From the IMG/VR virus record IMGVR_UViG_3300042141_000203: DNA of 20,000 bases, one strand, 5' to 3'. How positions within the stretch are numbered: position 1 is the stretch's first letter; the number at the start of each line of letters is the position of its first letter. The notes below the pieces were generated by a model. That model worked only from the letters and a program-made list of their open reading frames with translations, did not search any database and was not told where the DNA came from. The translations under genes and the position numbers were made by a program. Below, piece after piece: positions 2,931-14,059 of the stretch. This stretch comes from an uncultured virus (IMG/VR IMGVR_UViG_3300042141_000203) (taxonomy: Duplodnaviria > Heunggongvirae > Uroviricota > Caudoviricetes).

Positions 2931-3230
2931 ATGCCGCACGTTCACGCCGCAGGAAAAACGGGCAGGCCGAGGAGCTGGCAGCCGTGCCAGATTGGGCGGA
3001 ATATCGAAAGTGTCTGCGGTCGCCGCGGGGTCCGGCTAGAGGACCTGGCAAGTTCCGCCGGGGTCAGCCTGCCGACCCTGTACCGCATCGTGGGCGGCCT
3101 CACGCCGGACCCCAAGGTATCGACGCTAAAAGCTATTGCCGACTCCCTCGACGTAACCGTGGATCGGCTGATTAGGAAAACAGCGGAGCCAGCCCGCGGG
3201 CGGACTCGATCCGTTCGCAGGCCAGCTTGA
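2931..3230 (+). CDS. XRE-family HTH transcriptional regulator (candidate repressor)
   Basis: LEDLASSAGVSLPTLYRIVGGLTPDPKVSTLKAIADSLDVTVDRLI; GGAGG RBS before ATG 2931; no S24 peptidase domain. Confidence 0.85.
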   Translation: MPHVHAAGKTGRPRSWQPCQIGRNIESVCGRRGVRLEDLASSAGVSLPTLYRIVGGLTPDPKVSTLKAIADSLDVTVDRLIRKTAEPARGRTRSVRRPA

Positions 3231-4395
3231 CGTATTCGGGATTGAGTTCGCAGCCGATGCCGCTCCTGCCAAGCTCGGCGGCAACGGCCAGCGTTGTTCC
3301 GCTGCCGGCGAACGGGTCCAGCACAACGCACGGCACAGACTTTCCGGCATAGCACTGGCAGCCGGCCCGCCAGCCGGTAGTCGTTGTCTGCGTAACGTGT
3401 CGCTGCGGGTCGCGATTGCCGACGTGAAGATGATTCCAGCCGGCAGGCGGAGCGGCCTCATGATGCTTTCCGACTTTCGTGTCCAGCCCCGGCCGAGTCG
3501 CAAGCCGGGACTTCTCCACGACCCGCTCGAGCGGCGAGAGGCACGACGGGCAGCAACCCTCCTCGCTCGTGCCCGCCTTGATGCACGGTGCCACAAGGCC
3601 GGGAGGCATGGTGGCAAAGTGCGCACCCTTGTACGGTTTTGTCGCCACCGTCCAGACAGAGCGGCGATTGCGGGTGTCTCCGCGAAAAACGACGGTTCCT
3701 GGCACCTGATTTCCAGACGGCTTACGGTTCATACCGGCAGCCTGATAGCCGCCACCTCCGTGATCGACAGTAACGCGAGACTCACCGGCCGTTAGCGCCG
3801 CCTCGCTCACAGCCTCCGCGTCGTAGAAATACCGCTCGCTCTTGGTGAGCAGAAAAACGTATTCGTGCGCCTTCGTGCAGCGGTCGCGCACGCTCTCGGG
3901 CATCGGGTTGGGCTTGTGCCAAATGATGTCCTGCCGCAGCCACCAGCCATCCGCCTGCAACGCGAAAGCGACGCGCCACGGGATGCCTACGAGGTCTTTG
4001 GCTTTCAGTCCAGGCGGCGTGTATCCGGGCCTTGCCTTCTTTCTGGCCTCTCCTTCGCGGACAGAAAATGCGTTCATCGCTCCCCAGGACTCGCCTTCCG
4101 CTCGCCGCTGGTTACATGGAGCATCGGGTGCGTACCCGCCTCCGCCGCAGTACGAATCTCCGAGGTTCAGCCACAGCGTCCCGTCCTCGCGCAGCACGCG
4201 ACGCACCTCGCGGAACACTTCCACCATGCGGGCAACGTAGGCTTCCGGCGTGGACTCCAAGCCGATCTGCCCGTCGTGGCCGTAGTCCCGCAAGCCCCAG
4301 TAGGGCGGCGACGTGACGCAACAGTGAACGCTCGCGTCGGGCAGCGTCCGCAATCCTGCGATGCAGTCGCCCTCGATAACTCTGTGCGCAGTCAT
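3172..4395 (-). CDS. DNA N4-cytosine/N6-adenine methyltransferase (beta class)
   Basis: N-terminal VTSPPYW catalytic motif, C-terminal VLDPFAGSGTT SAM-binding motif, WHKPNPMPES..DRCT..HEY; GGAAAGGA RBS. Confidence 0.93.
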   Translation of the reverse strand: MTAHRVIEGDCIAGLRTLPDASVHCCVTSPPYWGLRDYGHDGQIGLESTPEAYVARMVEVFREVRRVLREDGTLWLNLGDSYCGGGGYAPDAPCNQRRAEGESWGAMNAFSVREGEARKKARPGYTPPGLKAKDLVGIPWRVAFALQADGWWLRQDIIWHKPNPMPESVRDRCTKAHEYVFLLTKSERYFYDAEAVSEAALTAGESRVTVDHGGGGYQAAGMNRKPSGNQVPGTVVFRGDTRNRRSVWTVATKPYKGAHFATMPPGLVAPCIKAGTSEEGCCPSCLSPLERVVEKSRLATRPGLDTKVGKHHEAAPPAGWNHLHVGNRDPQRHVTQTTTTGWRAGCQCYAGKSVPCVVLDPFAGSGTTLAVAAELGRSGIGCELNPEYVKLACERIESARGLAPLFS

Positions 4396-4438
4396 GGCGG
4401 ATTCCTTTCCTGCCACGATTTCTAGGCCACTGCACACG

Positions 4439-5313: not shown

Positions 5314-5515
5314 ACAGCGGGACGCGGAGCAGCGGGTCGCCACGAGGACCGCGAGGTTGCTCGAGGTCTATCACGCGGCAAAGCGGTTGACGGACGGCAT
5401 GAAGCGGATCGGCAACAAGGAGTACGAGGTCGAACCGGCCGCAGTGCTCTCGCTGCGGACGACGCTCACGGAAGCAGGGTTGTTTCTTCTCAAGGAAAGG
5501 AGACTCGAAAAATGA
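5294..5515 (+). CDS. hypothetical protein
   Basis: GAGGA RBS; ATGA overlap with the downstream ATPase. Confidence 0.65.
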   Translation: MLALTYEQRDAEQRVATRTARLLEVYHAAKRLTDGMKRIGNKEYEVEPAAVLSLRTTLTEAGLFLLKERRLEK

Positions 5516-6447
5516 CGATTCAGATTCGCAAGGCTCGCCGCTCGGCGACCAAGCTCCGCCTACTGCTGACCGGGCCGTCCGGCAGCGGAAAGACGTTCGG
5601 CGGCCTGCTGGTCGCCAAGGGGCTCGGCTGCCAGAACATCATCGTGATCGACACGGAGCAAGGGTCGAGCGATCTGTACGATTCGCTGGTCCCGTTCCAG
5701 GTGATCGACCTGGCACCGCCGTTCACCCCGGAAGCCTACATCGAGGCGATCGACGCCGCGGAGCAGGCCGGGGCCGACGCCATAATCGTCGACTCCATCA
5801 GTCACGAGTGGAACGGCAAGGGCGGGTGCCTGGAGCTGGTGGACGAGTTGGCGCGGGCGAAGTTCCGCGGCAATACCTGGTCCGCCTACAGCGAAGTGAC
5901 GCCGCGGCACCGGGCGTTTATCGACCGGATGCTCCGATCCAGTGCCCACGTCATCGCCACGTCGCGGTCCAAGACCGAAACCGCCCAGGTGGACGAGGGC
6001 GGCAAGAAGAAGGTGGTGAAGCTCGGCATGAAGGCCGAGACGCGCGACGGGGTGGAATACGAGTTCACCTGCTGCCTCGATCTTGTCCACGACGGGCATT
6101 TCGCGGTGGCGAGCAAGGACCGGACGGGCCTATTCGGTGGCGACCCGAAGGCCATCACGGTCGAAACCGGACAACGGCTTGCCGCGTGGCTGGCCGGTGG
6201 CGAGGCCCTGCGGAATGTCGAGCCCGCAGCGGCCTCGTCCACGAAACAACGGTCGGTATGGCACGGCAAGGGTCTGTCGCTGCTGCAGAAGGCCACGACG
6301 ACGGCGGAGGTTACCGACGCCGCCAAGCGGATCGACGCCCGCCTGCACAGCGGCGACCTGTCGCAAGAGGAGTGGGACGACCTTCACGAGCTGGTCGATC
6401 GCCGGCTGCATGAACTGTGCGCGACCGTGGAGGCCGCCAGTGAATAG
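5512..6447 (+). CDS. AAA_24 / Sak4-like P-loop ATPase (phage recombination protein)
   Basis: Walker A GPSGSGKT, IDTE, Walker B IIVDS, EYEF and KDRT motifs; followed by an SSB-like gene. Confidence 0.88.
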   Translation: MTIQIRKARRSATKLRLLLTGPSGSGKTFGGLLVAKGLGCQNIIVIDTEQGSSDLYDSLVPFQVIDLAPPFTPEAYIEAIDAAEQAGADAIIVDSISHEWNGKGGCLELVDELARAKFRGNTWSAYSEVTPRHRAFIDRMLRSSAHVIATSRSKTETAQVDEGGKKKVVKLGMKAETRDGVEYEFTCCLDLVHDGHFAVASKDRTGLFGGDPKAITVETGQRLAAWLAGGEALRNVEPAAASSTKQRSVWHGKGLSLLQKATTTAEVTDAAKRIDARLHSGDLSQEEWDDLHELVDRRLHELCATVEAASE

Positions 6448-7559: not shown

Positions 7560-8033
7560 ATGGATTTCAAGGACGCAATCCAAGCACTAGCAGGACGCAG
7601 GGCCGAGCTGCACGCCGGGCAGGCCAGCTCCAGGCCGTTGTCGGAGAACTACGAGGACGTGGGCATCGCCGGCGAGTTTGCGTTCGGCCAGTTCTGCGGG
7701 CTGATGCCCGACCTGGACGAACGGCCGGACGGCGATGGCGGAGTCGATTTCGTGCTGCCGCTGTTGTTCACCGTGGACGTGAAAACCGCCAGGAAGGCCC
7801 ACAACCTCATTCACGAGCAGGGAAAGCCGTTCGCTGACGTGTTCGTGCTCGCGGAGTATTTCGATGCAACTCGAAACGCCCGCCTTGTGGGCTGGGAATA
7901 CGGCCGCAAGCTGGCCGCCGCGCCGGTCCGCGATTTCGGCTACGGGGTGTTGAATCACTACATCGCACGTTCGGAGCTGCGGCCAATGGACGAGCTGGCC
8001 GCCAGGATCGCCAAGCAAGGAGTAAGGCAGTGA
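7560..8033 (+). CDS. PD-(D/E)XK nuclease-fold protein
   Basis: GIAGEFAF (motif I), GDGGVDF, VDVKT (D-x-K); GGAGG RBS. Confidence 0.65.
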   Translation: MDFKDAIQALAGRRAELHAGQASSRPLSENYEDVGIAGEFAFGQFCGLMPDLDERPDGDGGVDFVLPLLFTVDVKTARKAHNLIHEQGKPFADVFVLAEYFDATRNARLVGWEYGRKLAAAPVRDFGYGVLNHYIARSELRPMDELAARIAKQGVRQ

Positions 8034-8953
8034 CACACTGGTTTCCACTATTCGGTCGCGACTTCCTCGCGGCCACGACGGGATGGACGGCCGAGGAGCG
8101 CGGCCACTACATCACGCTGCTGATAGTCCAATGGGAACAAGGCGCCCTGCCGGACGACGTGAAGCGTCTGGAGCTGATTTCGCCAGGCATCCGCTCCTGC
8201 TGGAAGGCGATCGCCGACAAGTTCCCGATCTGGCAGGACGGCCGCCGGCGCAACACCAGGCTCGAGCACGAGCGTTCTAAGGCCGAGGGCCGCAGCGAGA
8301 AGGCTCGTCAGTCGGCATCGCGACTGTGGGCCGGCAAGCGTCCGGAAGCACCAAAGCAGGCCGATTGCCAACCTCCCGCAGAACCCCCATCCTGCCAGAA
8401 TGGCATATGCGATGGCATATGCGATGGCATATGCGAACGCATCAGCGAACGCACCAGCGAAGGCATATGCTCGGCACCATGCTCGGCGGATGCTTCCACA
8501 ACCACATATATTTCATCATCATCAACGCGCGAGAAAAACGTGGCCCCGGAGGGCTGGGAAGGCTTCCGCGAGGGGTGGAATACGGGGGCCTCCGCAGGAC
8601 ACCGGAGGCCATGGCTATCGGCCTCCCCGCCCCCTGCCCTGTCTGACCGCCTGGCGGAGCCCGGCTGGCTGGACGAGGCCGCCAGGGCCATGCCCATGCT
8701 CCAGGCCTGCCGGCGGTTCGCCTCGCCCGTCAGCCTGGGCCAGTTCTGCAAGCCGGGGTTCGTGGCCGAGGTCCTGGGCGGGTACTACCGCGACCGGCCG
8801 CGCGGCCGGCGGGAGCCCGACGCCCCTGCGGCTCCGCAGGTCGACCCGGCCTTTGAGGCCGCGGCACGGGCGACGATGGCGCGCGAGGAAGCCCGCCGCA
8901 AGGCGGAGCACCGCCGCCTGGACGAGCTGGCCGCCACGGGGGGCGACGCATGA
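8030..8953 (+). CDS. DUF1376/YdaU-like replication initiator
   Basis: WFPLFGRDFLAATTGWTAEERGHYITLLIVQW..GALPDD N-terminus; internal 12-bp repeats as in lambdoid O-type genes. Confidence 0.85.
   Translation: MTHWFPLFGRDFLAATTGWTAEERGHYITLLIVQWEQGALPDDVKRLELISPGIRSCWKAIADKFPIWQDGRRRNTRLEHERSKAEGRSEKARQSASRLWAGKRPEAPKQADCQPPAEPPSCQNGICDGICDGICERISERTSEGICSAPCSADASTTTYISSSSTREKNVAPEGWEGFREGWNTGASAGHRRPWLSASPPPALSDRLAEPGWLDEAARAMPMLQACRRFASPVSLGQFCKPGFVAEVLGGYYRDRPRGRREPDAPAAPQVDPAFEAAARATMAREEARRKAEHRRLDELAATGGDA
8401..8524. repeat. putative replication origin iterons
   Basis: TGGCATATGCGA x3, then degenerate 12-bp units (ACGCATCAGCGA, ACGCACCAGCGA, AGGCATATGCTC...), followed by AT-rich ACATATATTTCATCATCATCAA. 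Confidence 0.75.
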
Positions 8954-9150
8954 CGCCGCGGCAGCGCGAGGTCTGCGACGCGATCGTCACGCTCACGGAG
9001 CGTATGGGCCATCCGCCGACGCTGCGCGAGGTCGGCGCGTTTCTCGGCACGCTGCCGAGTGACGTTCACCAGAAGCTCGCGCGGCTGCGCCGTGACGGGC
9101 GCGTCGAGTGGAAGCCGCATCAGTGCCGGACGCTGCGTGTGGTGAAATGA
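8950..9150 (+). CDS. stand-alone LexA-type winged-helix DNA-binding protein
   Basis: MTPRQREVCDAI......GHPPTLREVG..LG.....VHQKL..LRRDG.V......RTL matches the LexA N-terminal domain; no peptidase domain. Confidence 0.85.
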   Translation: MTPRQREVCDAIVTLTERMGHPPTLREVGAFLGTLPSDVHQKLARLRRDGRVEWKPHQCRTLRVVK

Positions 9151-9193
9151 AAGTGTGCAACCGATGCAACGCGGAGAAGGAGACAAACGGGCT

Positions 9194-9424
9194 ATGTCAG
9201 AACTGCGGCAGTCCAGAGTTTCGGATAGCGTCGAGCACCCCGCCCACTACACGACGCACCCAAGCGGCATCGAGTGCATCACAATCGCGGAAGCGTTCAA
9301 CTTCAACGTCGGCAACGCCATCAAGTACCTGTGGCGTGCCGGACTCAAAGGCGACGCCATCGAGGACCTGCGGAAAGCGGCGTGGTACATCAACCGCGAA
9401 ATCGAAAGGCGCACCAGTGAGTGA
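9194..9424 (+). CDS. DUF3310 family protein (SaV / T7 gp1.7-like)
   Basis: VEHPAHYT...IECI....FNVGNAIKYLWRAGLKG..IEDLRKAAWYI. Confidence 0.9.
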   Translation: MSELRQSRVSDSVEHPAHYTTHPSGIECITIAEAFNFNVGNAIKYLWRAGLKGDAIEDLRKAAWYINREIERRTSE

Positions 9425-9974
9425 TCTGGTCGATCGTCTACGCGAGAGCGTCAAGGCCTGCCGTGCATTGGATCGCTCGGCGCTGCTTGAGGAGGCGGCA
9501 GAGGAGATTGAGCTACTGCGCCGCGAGCGTGACGCCACGATGGAGGACTACCGCAGGCTTTCGACGCGATGGGACACGGCGGTCGCCGAATGGGCAGCGG
9601 AAACGCGAAAACTTCATGCGATGATTGACGCCCTACGAGCCATTCACGACGCCGCGCCGGCGGCGATAGCCCGTACAGACGCCGACAGGGACCGCACCGA
9701 TAAAGCGGCACCCCAACCCGGCGAGGGCACCGGCGATATTGTGACGCGGCTGCGGCAGACGCGGGCCAACATGATCGGCACCGATGACGAGGATCACTAT
9801 TTCGACTGCCATGAGGCGGCGGCCGAGATTGAGCGATTGCGGTCGTGGGGCAGGCTCACCGACGAGGAGCGGGCGGCCGTTGCAGTCGCCATTGATGAGT
9901 GCGAGTCGATGCCGGTGACACGATCCCGTGTCGCTGCCGATACGCTGCGGAGCGTTCTGGAGCGATTGAAGTGA
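9417..9974 (+). CDS. hypothetical modular protein
   Basis: GTG start overlapping the DUF3310 stop; repeated D(L/I)VxRLR...EAAxEIExLR modules and an LTDEER module. Confidence 0.7.
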   Translation: MSDLVDRLRESVKACRALDRSALLEEAAEEIELLRRERDATMEDYRRLSTRWDTAVAEWAAETRKLHAMIDALRAIHDAAPAAIARTDADRDRTDKAAPQPGEGTGDIVTRLRQTRANMIGTDDEDHYFDCHEAAAEIERLRSWGRLTDEERAAVAVAIDECESMPVTRSRVAADTLRSVLERLK

Positions 9975-10021
9975 TAACGCCAGCGATCAGCGGCTCCGTC
10001 CGCTGCATCGCGTGGTTCTCA
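9972..10021 (-). mobile_element. attC-like recombination site 1
   Basis: Minus strand: GAGAAC, 5 bp, GATGCAGC (8 nt L''), GG-A-CGGAG-CC, GCTGATC (7 nt L'), 6 bp, GTTATCA; unpaired bases at + strand 10006 and 9999. Confidence 0.8.
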
Positions 10022-10033
10022 CAAGGAGCAAGC

Positions 10034-10351
10034 ATGGCTGACGGCAAAGGATGCAAGTGTGCGGCCCATTCGGAATCCGAGTGCGGCTGCGATGCCGATT
10101 GGACGCCGCAAGAGGTGTACGACCTGCGGGCCGAAAATGAGCGGCTCAAAAAAGCCATTCGCCGCATAGCAGAGCAGGACGCCACGCTGTCGGTATGCGA
10201 CGGCAACGTGACAGTGACCATGGACGCCACGCTCACCGACGAGGAGCGGGAGGCGATTGCCTACGCTGCAAAAATAGTGCGGCTTTCTGGTAAAAAGGTA
10301 GACCGGATGCGGTCGGATGTTATGGCGGCACTGCTCGCCAAATCTGAGTGA
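10034..10351 (+). CDS. hypothetical protein with Cys-rich N-terminus (cassette A gene)
   Basis: AAGGAG RBS; CKCAAHSESECGC motif; LTDEEREAI module; stop codon lies inside the R box of attC site 2. Confidence 0.75.
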   Translation: MADGKGCKCAAHSESECGCDADWTPQEVYDLRAENERLKKAIRRIAEQDATLSVCDGNVTVTMDATLTDEEREAIAYAAKIVRLSGKKVDRMRSDVMAALLAKSE

Positions 10352-10437
10352 GAACACGGAAGATCAACGGCGGCCACGCGAGGACTCACCATGACACATG
10401 ACGCTGAAGGGCCGTCCGTTGCATCGGCTGGTTCTAT
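10349..10437 (-). mobile_element. attC-like recombination site 2
   Basis: + strand: AAC, 6 bp, GATCAAC-GG-CGGCC ... GGCCG-[T]-CC-GTTG-[C]-ATC, 5 bp, GTT; two extrahelical bases at the canonical positions. Confidence 0.85.
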
Positions 10438-11491
10438 GCCGCTCACATTCGGGTCACTTTTCGCAGGCATTGGAGGCTTTGACCTTGGACTTGAACGCGC
10501 TGGGATGCGATGCGAATGGCAAGTCGAAATCGACCCATACGCCAGAGCCGTGCTCGCCAAGCACTGGCCCGACGTGCGCCGCTGGGAAGACGTGCGGACG
10601 TTCCCGCCGAAGGAAGGCGAGTGGGGCGTCGATGTCATCTGCGGCGGATTCCCCTGCCAAGACATCAGCGTTGCCGGAAAGGGTGCCGGCCTCGCCGGAT
10701 CGAGGTCCGGTCTTTGGTACGAATACGCTCGGATCATTGGCGAGCTACGACCCCGCTACGTCATCGTGGAGAACGTCGCAGCTCTCCTTACTCGAGGGGC
10801 CGATGTTGTTCTCGGGACGCTGGCCTCGCTCGGGTATGACGCGGAATGGCACGTTATTCCAGCTTCAGCCGTTGGTGCGCCGCACCGACGGGACAGGCTC
10901 TGGATCATTGCCTACGCCAACTGCGGACAAGTGCATCGGCTGCGAGCCGACCCCGGAGATGGCGGAGCGGTTCCGGCGCAAGGGCAGCAGCGGGAGTTTC
11001 GTCGAGGCGATGGCTGCGAAGATGTATCCGACACCATCGGCATCGCAGATGCCTTGCGAGGGGACGGTTCGGCTGGCTCGCCAGCGATGGCTGGACGGCG
11101 ACTGCACGCTGGAGGAAGCCAACGCAATCGCGGGACGCGATGTGCGGGACAAGCAGGGCAAGGTGCCTGCGATGTGGCCGACGCCGAAGGCATCGGCCGC
11201 AGGGCCGGACTTTGCCAAGACAACGCGGAGCAAGACGGGCATCAGCCTAGCGACGGCTGCGGCCATGTGGCCGACGCCGACCACGCAGGACGCATCGAAC
11301 AACGGCGGCCCGAGCCAGTATCAGCGGAACAGCTTGCCGCTCAATGCGCCGGCTGGTGGAGCGTTGAACCCGACGTGGGTCGAGTGGCTCATGGGGTTCC
11401 CGCTCGGGTGGACCGTCTGCGATGCCTCGGGAACGCGGTCGTCCCGCAGATCGTCGAAGTCATCGGGCGAGCAATAGTTGAGGCGGCGTAA
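10391..11491 (+). CDS. DNA cytosine-C5 methyltransferase, large (alpha) polypeptide (cassette B gene)
   Basis: Motifs I (SLFAGIGG), IV (GGFPCQD), VI (ENV), VIII (PHRRDR), X (LGNAVVPQ); motif IX absent from this frame. Confidence 0.92.
   Translation: MTHDAEGPSVASAGSMPLTFGSLFAGIGGFDLGLERAGMRCEWQVEIDPYARAVLAKHWPDVRRWEDVRTFPPKEGEWGVDVICGGFPCQDISVAGKGAGLAGSRSGLWYEYARIIGELRPRYVIVENVAALLTRGADVVLGTLASLGYDAEWHVIPASAVGAPHRRDRLWIIAYANCGQVHRLRADPGDGGAVPAQGQQREFRRGDGCEDVSDTIGIADALRGDGSAGSPAMAGRRLHAGGSQRNRGTRCAGQAGQGACDVADAEGIGRRAGLCQDNAEQDGHQPSDGCGHVADADHAGRIEQRRPEPVSAEQLAAQCAGWWSVEPDVGRVAHGVPARVDRLRCLGNAVVPQIVEVIGRAIVEAA
10632..11477 (+). CDS. nested alternative-frame (beta) polypeptide of the C5 methyltransferase (frame open from 10398)
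   Basis: Open for 359 codons inside the MTase gene; four xPTP repeat modules; C-terminal LNPTWVEWLMGFPLGWT resembles motif IX. Confidence 0.7.
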   Translation: MSSAADSPAKTSALPERVPASPDRGPVFGTNTLGSLASYDPATSSWRTSQLSLLEGPMLFSGRWPRSGMTRNGTLFQLQPLVRRTDGTGSGSLPTPTADKCIGCEPTPEMAERFRRKGSSGSFVEAMAAKMYPTPSASQMPCEGTVRLARQRWLDGDCTLEEANAIAGRDVRDKQGKVPAMWPTPKASAAGPDFAKTTRSKTGISLATAAAMWPTPTTQDASNNGGPSQYQRNSLPLNAPAGGALNPTWVEWLMGFPLGWTVCDASGTRSSRRSSKSSGEQ

Positions 11492-11503
11492 GGCATAGAA
11501 CAA

Positions 11504-11533
11504 GAATTAGGCTGCGAACTGGCAGCCTAATTC
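11504..11533. repeat. perfect 12-bp inverted repeat at the cassette-array boundary
   Basis: GAATTAGGCTGC-GAACTG-GCAGCCTAATTC. Confidence 0.8.
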
Positions 11534-11612
11534 GGCGGCGAGTGCGGTTATAGGCCGAGACGCAGCAGGCGGCCGGCGTTATCCGGCGAACACTGGACTA
11601 GGGGATTTTGAG

Positions 11613-11951
11613 ATGGGCCGCGCATCACGCGAGAAAGGCAAAAGAGGCGAGCGCGAGGCTGCGGCCGAATTGGGCGCGGCCCTTGGTGTCGCCGCGCGTC
11701 GTGGCGTCCAGTTTCACGGCGGCCCTGACTCGCCGGATGTGGTGATCGAGGCCGCGATCCACGTCGAGGCCAAGCGTGTTGAATCGCTGCAGCTCTACCC
11801 GGCCGTCGAGCAGGCGACGAGCGACGCGCCGCCTGGCAAGGTGCCGATCGTCTGGCACCGTCGAAACAACAAGCCGAGCGTGGTGATTGTGGAAACGTCG
11901 AGGCTCGTGGACCTGGCCCGCGCAATCGTGGCCGCGGCGGAGGGTCGCTAG
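11613..11951 (+). CDS. Holliday junction resolvase-like PD-(D/E)XK protein (Hjc-type)
   Basis: SREKGKRGERE...SPDV...IHVEAKR signature. Confidence 0.82.
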   Translation: MGRASREKGKRGEREAAAELGAALGVAARRGVQFHGGPDSPDVVIEAAIHVEAKRVESLQLYPAVEQATSDAPPGKVPIVWHRRNNKPSVVIVETSRLVDLARAIVAAAEGR

Positions 11952-14059
11952 TGGTCGCGAAATCGAAAGAGGCGATCGAGAACCGCCGCAAGGCGACGCT
12001 CGAGCGTGGCCGCGCGACGACGCGACTCGGCGCGGACATTGGGGCGATTCCAAAAACCGCGGTGCCGGACCGGCGCGACGCGTGCCGGCTCGACCTGGCG
12101 AAGTTCCTCGTGGAGTATTTCCCAAACTCCACCGGCCTCTCGCCATTCTCCGACGACCATCTGCGGGTGATCGGCAGGATTCAAGACTGCATCCTGCGCG
12201 GAGGCCGTTTCGTCAACGCGGTGTACCGCGGCTTCGCGAAATCGACGATCAGCGAAAACTCGCTCATTTGGGCGATGCTCTACGGGCATCGCCGATTCGG
12301 TGCGATCTTCGCGGCCGAGGCGGACCTGGCGGCGAAAGCCATCACGTCGATCAAGCTGGAGCTGGCCGAAAACGACCTGCTGTTTGAGGACTTTCCCGAG
12401 GTCTGCGTGCCTGTGCGGGCCCTGGAGGGAAAGCCGCAACGCTGCCTGTCGCAGACCTGCGGCGGCGAGCACACTCATATCCGCTGGAACGCCGATTCCA
12501 TCGTCCTGCCGGCGATCAAGGGCTCGGCGAGTGCCGGGTCGATCATCTTCTCGCGCGGCCTCACGGGCTCGATCCTGGGACTGCGGCACAAGTCGCCGGA
12601 CGGCACCCAACTGCGGCCGGACTTCGTGATCGTGGACGATCCGCAGACGCGGGAAAGCGCGGCCTCCACGGTGCAGGTGCAGAAGCGGCTCGAAATACTT
12701 TCCAAGAGCGTGATGAAGCTCGCCGGGCACACGAAAAGCATCGCGTGCGTGGTCAATGCGACGGTGATCCAGGTCGACGATATGGTCGACCAGCTTCTCG
12801 ACCCGCGGAAATACCCGGCCTACCAGGGCGAGCGTATTCCGATGGTCCGCTCGTGGTCCAAGGGTCACGAAGAACTGTGGCTCGGCAAGTATCGCGACCT
12901 ACGCAACACGTTCGACAAGGACAAGGTGGGCGACCAGGCCCGTGCCCATCGCGAGGCCAATGAGTTCTACTTGGCGAATCGCGTGGCGATGGACGAGGAT
13001 TGTGCGGTGTCGTGGGCGAGCTGCTTCGACCCCGACGCGGAACACTCCGCGATCCAGCACGCGTACAACGCGCTGATCGACGACGGCGAGGACGTGTTCG
13101 CGAGCGAGTTCCAGCAAAAGCCGCTCGCCAACGAGGCGAAGTCGGCGGCCCTTGCCGGCGAGGACGTTCGCAGCCGCGCCGTGAACGTGCCGCGGTGGAT
13201 CGTGCCGGCCGGACTCGACACGCTCACTGCCTTCGTGGACGTGCAGGAAAAGCTCCTCTACTGGTCGATCGTCGCCTGGGGTCACCAGCTCCGCGGCCAC
13301 GTCGTCGCCTACGGCACCTACCCGGAGCAATCGCGCGCGTACTTCACGCTCCGCGACGCCCGTAAGACGCTGGTGGCGGCTGCTGGCGGGGCCGGCCTGG
13401 AGGCGGCGATCCATGCCGGGCTCGAGCGGGTGGCTATCGAAATACTCGACCGCGAGTTTTCTCGCGAAACGGACGATGCGGTACTCCGGGTCGCGCAAAT
13501 GTTCGTCGATGCCAACTGGGCACAGACGGCCGGCGTGGTCCGCGACTTCGCCAGGCGGTCACAGTGGGGGCCGCGCGTGATCCCGACGCACGGGCGATTC
13601 GTGGGTGCGTCCGGCTCGACCCTCTCGGACAAGCGGCCTGACCGCGGCGAGCGAGTTGGGGCAAACTGGCGAACGAGCACGATCTTGAAGCAGCGGCACG
13701 TCTTGTACGACACGAACGCGTGGAAGTCGTTTTTCGCCGCGCGGATGAAGCTGCCGGCGAGCGATCCGCAGGCCTTCACGATTCACGCCGGCAATCACGA
13801 GCTGCTGGCCGAGCACCTGACGAGCGAGTATCCGACTCGCGTGGAGGCTCGTGGCCGCGTCGTGGACGAGTGGCGGATGATCCCAGGCCGCGATAACCAC
13901 TGGCTCGATTGCGTGGTCGGCGCGGCCGTGGCCGCCTCGTTCACTGGCATTTCGGCCGTCGGTGCCGAGGCGCGGCCGCTGGCGACAGTGCGGCGGTCGA
14001 TCTCGAAGGAGCAGATGGCGGCGAAGCGCGCCGAGCTTTTGGCCCGTTTAGGCCGCTAA
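11951..14059 (+). CDS. terL: terminase large subunit (C-terminal GpA-like nuclease)
   Basis: Walker A-like YRGFAKST, Walker B FVIVDDPQ, nuclease FVDVQ and NHWLDC; upstream of the portal. Confidence 0.88.
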   Translation: MVAKSKEAIENRRKATLERGRATTRLGADIGAIPKTAVPDRRDACRLDLAKFLVEYFPNSTGLSPFSDDHLRVIGRIQDCILRGGRFVNAVYRGFAKSTISENSLIWAMLYGHRRFGAIFAAEADLAAKAITSIKLELAENDLLFEDFPEVCVPVRALEGKPQRCLSQTCGGEHTHIRWNADSIVLPAIKGSASAGSIIFSRGLTGSILGLRHKSPDGTQLRPDFVIVDDPQTRESAASTVQVQKRLEILSKSVMKLAGHTKSIACVVNATVIQVDDMVDQLLDPRKYPAYQGERIPMVRSWSKGHEELWLGKYRDLRNTFDKDKVGDQARAHREANEFYLANRVAMDEDCAVSWASCFDPDAEHSAIQHAYNALIDDGEDVFASEFQQKPLANEAKSAALAGEDVRSRAVNVPRWIVPAGLDTLTAFVDVQEKLLYWSIVAWGHQLRGHVVAYGTYPEQSRAYFTLRDARKTLVAAAGGAGLEAAIHAGLERVAIEILDREFSRETDDAVLRVAQMFVDANWAQTAGVVRDFARRSQWGPRVIPTHGRFVGASGSTLSDKRPDRGERVGANWRTSTILKQRHVLYDTNAWKSFFAARMKLPASDPQAFTIHAGNHELLAEHLTSEYPTRVEARGRVVDEWRMIPGRDNHWLDCVVGAAVAASFTGISAVGAEARPLATVRRSISKEQMAAKRAELLARLGR

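Follow-up and report, generated by a model that had tools for sequence, protein, structure and literature searches.

A probable integrase-less integron cassette array with backward genes in an uncultured tailed phage

The 20,000-nt stretch of the uncultured virus record IMGVR_UViG_3300042141_000203 (IMG/VR), here called the window, carries at positions 9969–11501 a pair of gene cassettes bounded by attC-type sites. This region is likely a two-cassette integron array without an integrase gene, i.e., a cluster of attC sites lacking integron integrases (CALIN), which is recombined at the triplets AAC/GTT by an integron integrase (IntI) of the host acting in trans. Comparison of the sequence with its relatives established the attC anatomy of the sites, their homology to sites recognized as IntI-associated, the gain and loss of whole cassettes at AAC, the reversed polarity of the genes and a translation start module within the long attC form. 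An initial annotation of the window had proposed an attC cassette array with inverted genes and no intI inside a phage operon, possibly served by a host IntI. This interpretation was supported overall, and the use of a host IntI is the part that we infer.

Both sites read as attC when the + strand of the window is taken as the attC bottom strand (Table 1). The motifs and positions that the initial annotation had given for them were all exact on recheck, and its attC geometry and strand assignment were borne out by the anatomy in the window and in relatives. Its box layout agreed in architecture and strand but differed slightly in box lengths from those read here: after AAC come an unpaired spacer of 6 nt and an L arm of 9 nt, and the opposite arm has an unpaired C and T 6 bp apart. 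The R boxes pair within each site (9976–9978 with 10015–10017; 10353–10355 with 10431–10433). The spacers of site 2, ACGGAA opposite GGCTG, are unpaired; the spacer of site 1 is largely able to pair. Both sites are intergenic, site 1 lying between the stop codon of gene X (TGA, 9972–9974, within the left R box of attC 1) and the start of open reading frame (ORF) A at 10034, and site 2 between the stop of ORF A (10349–10351) and the methylase core from 10436. The 24-nt 3' arm is present twice in the window (9996–10019 and 10412–10435; 0/200 shuffles). A covariance model built from phage copies of the element (R1) detected these two sites only over the 20 kb. With two + strand attC sites 320 nt apart and no IntI within the window, the region falls under the CALIN definition. 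A T-run 3' of the hairpins was absent from the + strand. The first site was 100% identical to its counterpart in two related viral loci, L075 and L004.

The two sites belong to a large family of phage elements. An exact scan of IMG/VR with a 21-base pattern of the shared arm yielded 84 stretches, the 80 listed rows falling on 74 contigs, and R1 found 197 sites across 75 viral loci. The elements occur in two forms, a short one of about 50 nt and a long one of about 90 nt with a larger terminal loop (56–65 and 95–98 nt including flanks), with intermediates in L032 and L066. Sequence conservation ends abruptly, at AGAAC on the left and at GGTTCT on the right. In an alignment of 115 distinct phage copies (A1), the L box and upper stem were 95.6% paired, a value inflated for the nine L-box pairs because the rows had been pre-selected for at least 8/9 complementary L-box positions. 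The covariation of the upper stem is not inflated by this selection. Nine of the 14 pairs had changed on both sides, and 18 distinct arm pairs were present. The covariation score was 0.221, compared with 0.092 for shuffled alignments (0/500 reached the observed score) and at most 0.095 with slid partners. The R box AGAAC/GTTCT was nearly invariant (95.5% paired; AAC/GTT triplets in 114–115 of 115 copies). No copy departed from the unpaired C (A1 column 83), and at least 90% kept the unpaired T (column 76); the two bases, separated by a 6-bp stem, are on the 3' arm facing AAC. The R-to-L spacers of 5–6 nt were unpaired (columns 11–17 and 87–91). This anatomy agrees with the bottom-strand attC definition given by Nivina (2016, PMC5027507), i.e., two or three extrahelical bases, of which the outermost is a conserved T and the first and last are 6 bp apart, and a central spacer of 5–6 nt. 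A profile search with nhmmer on A1 was less sensitive than R1 and was used for coordinates only. Among the GenBank phages of INPHARED, blastn in distant mode gave matches to the methylase gene only, with no match reaching 80% query coverage and without any related array. In three lake/freshwater metagenome runs (X1, X2 and X12), the summed contig k-mer depth at 9985–10061 and 10370–10446 was roughly 10–30 times that of the flanking genes, which suggests many copies of these attC sequences in lake and freshwater communities.

The limits of the cassettes could be read from two kinds of evidence. First, the R boxes had been described as complementary across each gene. This was confirmed in the window, where GTTCTCAC (10015–10022) is the reverse complement of GTGAGAAC (10348–10355; 8 nt) and GTTCTATGCC (10431–10440) that of GGCATAGAAC (11492–11501; 10 nt). 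It also applied to the family: in 55 of 76 elements, the bases past GTTC were complementary to those before GAAC 180–2500 nt downstream at four or more extra positions, with about 9/76 expected under permuted pairing. In the methylase cassette, a compensatory change was found between the two ends, 1 kb apart, the relatives having AAGCC/GGCTT and the window ATGCC/GGCAT.

Second, whole cassettes were present or absent between relatives. The nearest record (G001) joins the end of its ORF A homologue, GAGAAC, straight to AAGAATTAGG, lacks 10356–11501 and matches the window at 100% identity from 11497 on. A 6-nt direct repeat, at 10351–10356 and at the distal end of cassette B, flanks this 1146-bp indel. 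Compared with L075 and L004, the window showed one difference in 9750–10355 and then 7/80 and 4/80 differences starting exactly at 10356, the base that adjoins AAC; no likeness remained beyond 10435. Contigs in runs X1 and X2, from two lake/freshwater studies, skip 10351–11496, and the same runs also contain the methylase. The methylase cassette was found with the same limits in 6 different neighbourhoods. Judged from these junctions, this cassette (1146 bp) is gained or lost as one unit. The breakpoints of the relatives (G001, L075, L004, X1/X2 and the array-end flank) fall at AAC as had been predicted, and both ends of cassette B as well as the right end of cassette A were located correctly by the initial annotation. 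The doubly empty site that it had also predicted was not among the 7 viral stretches bearing the right-hand flank. Taken together, the breakpoints at AAC, the indel repeat and the cross-cassette complementarity are the signature of circular cassettes that recombine at their R boxes. The back-joint of cassette B was not found among Logan contigs, which drop rare forms. Short joints between attC 1 and attC 2 in contigs (sides of 21–25 nt) were rejected as repeat artefacts.

Different cassettes join the same conserved flank at the array end, which takes the position of the attI side in a canonical integron. This flank was found after 6 different cassette ends, each time directly past RAAC, and such a fixed junction is attI-like behaviour. 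It contains a perfect 12-bp hairpin (11504–11533; fold z of −4.33) that is terminator-like on the − strand and is followed by GTT where the cassettes join. Most related phages end their arrays with another flank, which starts with CAGTGTTTCT and has several repeats, for example GATAAC, CATAAC or GTATATC, at which an integrase or a terminase could bind. In another viral locus, the array-end flank (L065, 872–1121) matched the attI-side flank of a host array (L094, 9860–10110) at 45/56 positions, with a 33-nt run containing one mismatch (score of 62; shuffle maximum of 25). Since these two flanks match, some phage arrays may have brought an attI.

The exchange of cassettes might alternatively be explained by homologous recombination between the 50–95-nt repeats, the attC-derived sites being no longer recombined site-specifically and kept as start or regulatory modules. 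The long attCs of unrelated cassettes are 91–95% identical, which is enough for homologous exchange, and the attCs clearly double as start modules. In addition, one mosaic junction (9643/9644) lies outside any attC, and the phages have no integrase of IntI type. However, the drop in identity begins with the first base after AAC in two comparisons and not within the repeat, the indel is bordered by the R-box repeat, and the unpaired bases and their 6-bp spacing are conserved. Cross-cassette complementarity together with a compensatory change 1 kb apart indicates continuing selection for pairing in a circular or folded state, which homologous exchange neither creates nor needs. Homologous recombination in place of site-specific recombination is considered unlikely.

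Site-specific recombination by an IntI is linked to the phage elements through bacterial arrays. R1, although built from phage copies, matched arrays adjoining intI genes with scores of 388–453 bits (TIGR02249; cut-off of 265) in Planctomycetia/Pirellulales genomes. In L094, three R1 sites lie 1.2–2.6 kb from intI; five, three and two R1 sites were found in the intI loci L116, L108 and L115, respectively, and the arrays were co-oriented. Scanned genome-wide with 150 candidates scored per genome, five host genomes gave 9, 27, 1, 15 and 16 matches (68 in total). As a negative control, 64 kb of sequence surrounding distantly related prophage terminases from Pirellulales gave 0 matches. Because the phage-built model matches arrays beside true intI genes, the phage elements are regarded as attC sites of planctomycete type. 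The host array L094 also obeys the cross-cassette complementarity, including at its attI junction. Two layouts occur in one host genome, intI being divergent from the array in L094 (G044:C155) and co-directed with the cassettes, with the array 3' of intI, in L108 (G044:C230); the latter layout is also that of L116 (G040:C2).

The exact arm pattern was found in 7 stretches of species-representative genomes, of which 5 are labelled Planctomycetia, Pirellulales or Planctomycetota, one Polarisedimenticolia and one Gammaproteobacteria. Relatives of the large terminase (TerL) of the window at about 44% identity were present in 33 of 151 Pirellulales genomes. From the attC type and these TerL relatives, the host group of the phage is probably Planctomycetota, likely Pirellulales. 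An IntI above the cut-off was encoded in 23 of the 151 sampled Pirellulales genomes and in 4 of 5 motif-holding genomes. The latter figure is not independent evidence on the phage host because the motif matches are mostly chromosomal arrays.

As initially annotated, no intI is present in the window, and none of 38 related viral records, 15 of them at least 90% complete, encoded an IntI above the cut-off. The recombining enzyme could instead be the tyrosine integrase of the phage itself, which would act on the attCs besides integrating the prophage. A gene of the Phage_integrase family, i.e., one own tyrosine recombinase, was found in 15/15 near-complete records and in 31/38 overall, and an own enzyme would free the phage from dependence on the gene content of its host. 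Moreover, genomes with TerL-related prophages were not enriched in IntI (3/33 vs. 23/151 overall). On the other hand, the window integrase, which is the only tyrosine recombinase of the window, scored 17 bits against the integron-integrase model, far from its cut-off, and 22.7 bits against XerD, and in host genomes genuine intI genes stand beside sites of this attC type. Cury et al. (2016, PMC4889954) concluded that a tyrosine recombinase near attC sites is not an IntI if it lacks the IntI-specific domain. It is quite improbable that the phage enzyme rather than a host IntI recombines the sites. Finally, the notion that the sites are inverted repeats arisen by chance, or ordinary terminators between genes, and take no part in recombination, which fits the poor folding of site 2 and a GC-rich window favouring hairpins, is refuted by the pattern family (84 exact matches; 197 R1 sites in 75 loci), the cross-cassette complementarity, the strong compensatory covariation, the AAC breakpoints and limits shared with the indel, the homology to intI-adjacent sites and the missing + strand T-run.

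The cassette genes lie on the attC bottom strand, i.e., inverted relative to bacterial cassettes, as the initial annotation had pointed out. The test by the longest ORF is unreliable in this GC-rich DNA, and a codon model that had been trained on six genes of the window took its place. By the codon model, the best ORF was sense to the R1 strand in 115 of 127 viral cassettes (108 vs. 6 when the margin exceeded 5). Of the host cassettes, 26/29 were antisense by the longest ORF and 22/29 by the codon model. All ten cargo representatives with a Pfam family were in sense.

The long attC form also carries a translation start. An in-frame ATG was present in 103 of 123 long viral attCs, and the frame stayed open for at least 30 further codons in 89. 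Among comparable host elements, 1/24 had an in-frame ATG and 0 an equally open frame; 28 host and 12 viral elements without the anchor motif were left out of this count. In the window, the methylase start ATG at 10391 stands behind GAGGA (10380–10384) and opens a 15-codon leader, with the conserved core following from 10436. In 5 relatives, the attC ATG is the sole methylase start because AAG replaces the ATG after GGTTCT. From sequence and frame, we infer that the leader is translated.

The viral cassettes contained 173 distinct sense ORFs in 101 clusters, with up to 8 cassettes per 6-kb locus and shared families in varying order. Ten of the 96 cluster representatives scanned (five of 36–46 aa were left out) had a Pfam family, namely C5 methylase, N6/N4 methylase (2), Methyltransf_11, Mom, DUF551 (2), HNH, HTH_17 and a recombinase fragment. 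Since the recognizable cargo consists mostly of DNA-modification enzymes, the array probably serves the rapid change of counter-defence genes and further accessory genes. Cargo shared between phages and hosts yielded no convincing case (one weak HNH match and two matches of attC-encoded peptides). The N6/N4 methylases of relatives (cluster c4) are cassette cargo, and a methylase of this type also stands outside the array of the window, near the integrase. The codon usage of the methylase cassette is atypical for the phage, with a codon-model score of 1.9 compared with 18–65 for other window genes; this would fit a recent acquisition.

ORF A, for which Pfam and PHROG scans gave no convincing family, is a member of cluster c0, which with 26 members is the largest family of cargo. 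The likeness to the upstream phage gene that had been noticed in an LTDEER module agrees with this family, which also includes the C-terminal part of gene X (from about 9644). The c0 proteins are about 100 aa long, with an LT-EER-AI motif, an LLERL-type C-terminus and no Pfam family; their stop codon usually overlaps the next R box.

Several observations weigh against an array of IntI-recombined attC sites. Folded alone, site 2 was no better than shuffles (z of −1.36 on the + strand and −1.62 on the − strand); site 1 gave −2.29 and −3.54. Because single-site folding was just moderately convincing, the hairpin structure is argued here from covariation in relatives and not from energy. The R box of the phages is GTTCT, whereas the attC consensus is GTTRRRY, and their first unpaired base is C, where G is usual according to the description in PMC5027507. 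The breakpoint at 9643/9644, relative to L075/L004, lies inside a coding region and not at an attC. The longest-ORF test was weak in viral arrays (87 sense, 39 antisense and 1 tie among 127), and the codon model misjudges the methylase cassette itself. The array-end flank of the window aligned to the one host attI flank examined, that of L094, with a score of 21 (shuffle maximum of 28), and a scan of 301 Pirellulales genomes gave just 3 matches to it, all weak and partial. Its junction behaves like attI, and its sequence has no significant likeness to the L094 flank. Within 1.5 kb of TerL, no attC was found in the 12 Pirellulales loci examined. The phage-borne recombinases and the missing IntI enrichment described above point in the same direction.

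The proposed mechanism of IntI-driven exchange is as follows. In each cassette, an attC hairpin is followed by one gene and then by a short tail that can pair with the sequence next to the hairpin, so that the R box would be completed once the cassette had been excised as a circle. Insertion, deletion and reordering of cassettes through recombination at the conserved AAC/GTT, outcomes that the comparison with relatives shows, would most likely be the work of the host integron integrase in trans. Since the cargo lies on the attC bottom strand, the phage operon reads the genes in sense. The variable loop of the long attC has gained a ribosome-binding site and an ATG with about 15 codons, with which it would start translation of the cargo. 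A wider view, that a lineage of freshwater planctomycete phages has its own circulating pool of backward cassettes, with attCs as portable start modules, moved by the IntI of any host and reshuffling counter-defence genes (methylases, Mom), has in our estimate an even chance of being correct. If it is true, the reversed polarity would keep exchanged phage and host cassettes mutually silent, and in-frame fusions of attC and cargo may reveal how new cassettes arise, a question that is still open in integron biology.

By its gene content, the window belongs to a high G+C temperate tailed phage or prophage. The array occupies a stretch of accessory genes immediately ahead of the packaging genes, between the DUF3310 gene with gene X and the RusA-like gene with the terminase (Table 1). 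Further 3' follow the large terminase, the portal, a protease-capsid fusion and a collagen-like fibre. A mechanically listed ORF of 288 aa (9108–9974) is a composite frame, the real genes being the DUF3310 gene in another frame and gene X. A possible small zinc-ribbon ORF at 9148–9228 was spotted by eye only. In relatives, homologues of gene X, ending in LLERLx-stop followed by GAAC, sit 5' of the first elements. From about 9644, gene X shares 97.6% identity with an ORF that L075/L004 carry in a cassette and that is preceded by its own attC (the junction at 9643/9644 was compared with L075 2615–2660); the gene in the window instead has a coiled-coil-like N-terminal part of 75 aa and no attC before the shared region.

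Table 1. Position, strand and supporting details of features in the window.
Feature	Position	Strand	Details
Tyrosine integrase	1785–2699	−	
N6/N4 DNA methylase	3172–4437	−	Outside the array, near the integrase
Sak4-like AAA_24 protein	5512–6447	+	
DUF1376 primosomal-type protein	8030–8953	+	
DUF3310 gene	9155–9424	+	PF11753, 1.4e-13
Gene X	9417–9974	+	Final gene ahead of the array; from translation; no Pfam family
attC 1, short form	9969–10025	+ (attC bottom strand)	R1, 48.8 bits, E 7e-12
attC 1, first arm and loop	AAC 9976–9978; spacer 9979–9984; L arm 9985–9993; loop 9994–9999		
attC 1, second arm	L arm 10000–10009; unpaired C 10006; spacer 10010–10014; GTTCT 10015–10019		
ORF A	10034–10351	+	Cargo of cassette A; 105 aa; own Shine-Dalgarno AAGGAG 10023–10028
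attC 2, long form	10346–10441	+ (attC bottom strand)	R1, 96.2 bits; covariation
attC 2, first arm	AGAAC 10351–10355; spacer 10356–10361; L arm 10362–10370		
attC 2, upper stem	10371–10375 with 10410–10414		
attC 2, variable loop	GAGGA 10380–10384; ATG 10391–10393		
attC 2, second arm	Unpaired T 10415; L arm 10416–10425; unpaired C 10422; spacer 10426–10430		
attC 2, end	GTTCT 10431–10435; extension ATGCC 10436–10440		
C5 cytosine DNA methylase	10391–11491	+	Cargo of cassette B; PF00145 2.4e-47; TIGR00675 135 bits; phrog_363 3.8e-85
Cassette B distal end	11492–11501	+	GGCAT + AGAAC, complementary to 10431–10440
Conserved array-end flank	11502–11560		Junction point for different cassettes; attI side in a canonical integron
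RusA-like/PDDEXK protein	11613–11951	+	

Integrons are regarded as devices with which bacteria capture genes, and recent work has shown that cassettes for anti-phage defence are stored in chromosomal integrons. Here, integron recombination sites give order to the variable accessory region throughout a group of phages, with a cargo that includes anti-restriction-type methylases. Two features are not described for bacterial cassettes, namely the reversed gene polarity and the attC doubling as a translation start. If a host integrase drives the exchange, the phages would exploit the adaptive machinery of their hosts to diversify their own genes, and a mobile-element function would be seen at work in trans in a clear natural example. 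The system also offers a concrete handle on the origin of cassettes and on the constraint of attC by coding plus folding, since one fixed leader has been joined in frame to many genes that are unrelated to each other.

Phage CALINs as such are already known. Qi et al. (2023, PMC9892861) examined 10,705 phage genomes and described parts of integrons in 21, with 17 CALINs; five DNA methylases were among the cargo of their set, and IntI1 recombined 5 of 6 phage attCs assayed. The statement of the initial annotation that integrons are regarded as rare or absent in phages is qualified by these published cases. Like the array in the window, those CALINs are attC arrays without intI and with methylase cargo, and the hairpin at 11504–11533 resembles the terminator-like hairpin border with GTT motifs of phage TJE1 in the same report. 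The cases described there are sporadic, whereas here a whole lineage is affected (at least 74 contigs and up to 8 cassettes per 6 kb). Moreover, the two arrays with a stated direction were called typical of bacterial arrays, whereas here the bottom strand encodes the genes, which take their ribosome site and start codon from the attC. The terms Planctomycet-, opposite, antisense, ribosome and start codon do not occur in the main text of that article. A literature search did not find reversed, start-bearing attC cassettes described in phages; relative to the main text of PMC9892861 and this search, the backward, translation-start form was not found in print.

The promoter-early stem-loop (PeSL) cassettes of T4-type phages combine stem-loops with an early promoter and have been proposed to act through homologous recombination. 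They are similar in that repeated stem-loops stand before small accessory phage genes, mark mosaic borders and carry expression signals. They differ in that the signal is a promoter, while the elements of the window have attC anatomy and junctions at one fixed triplet. A scan limited to sigma-70-like promoters found 0 sites in 8900–12100. A route for the entry of the first cassette into a phage genome, at the GTT next to a hairpin and without need of an attI, is offered by the IntI-mediated cassette insertion outside att sites that Loot et al. reported for bacterial genomes (bioRxiv 10.1101/2022.09.11.507474).

A further related system is formed by the sedentary chromosomal integrons of Planctomycetota, which use the same attC family as the phage sites according to R1. 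A covariance model for Planctomycetes-specific attC sites exists (Ghaly et al. 2021, PMC8352920). The host arrays possess intI and an attI side. Their ORFs lie on the top strand and their attCs are mostly free of a start module, whereas the phage arrays are the opposite on both counts.

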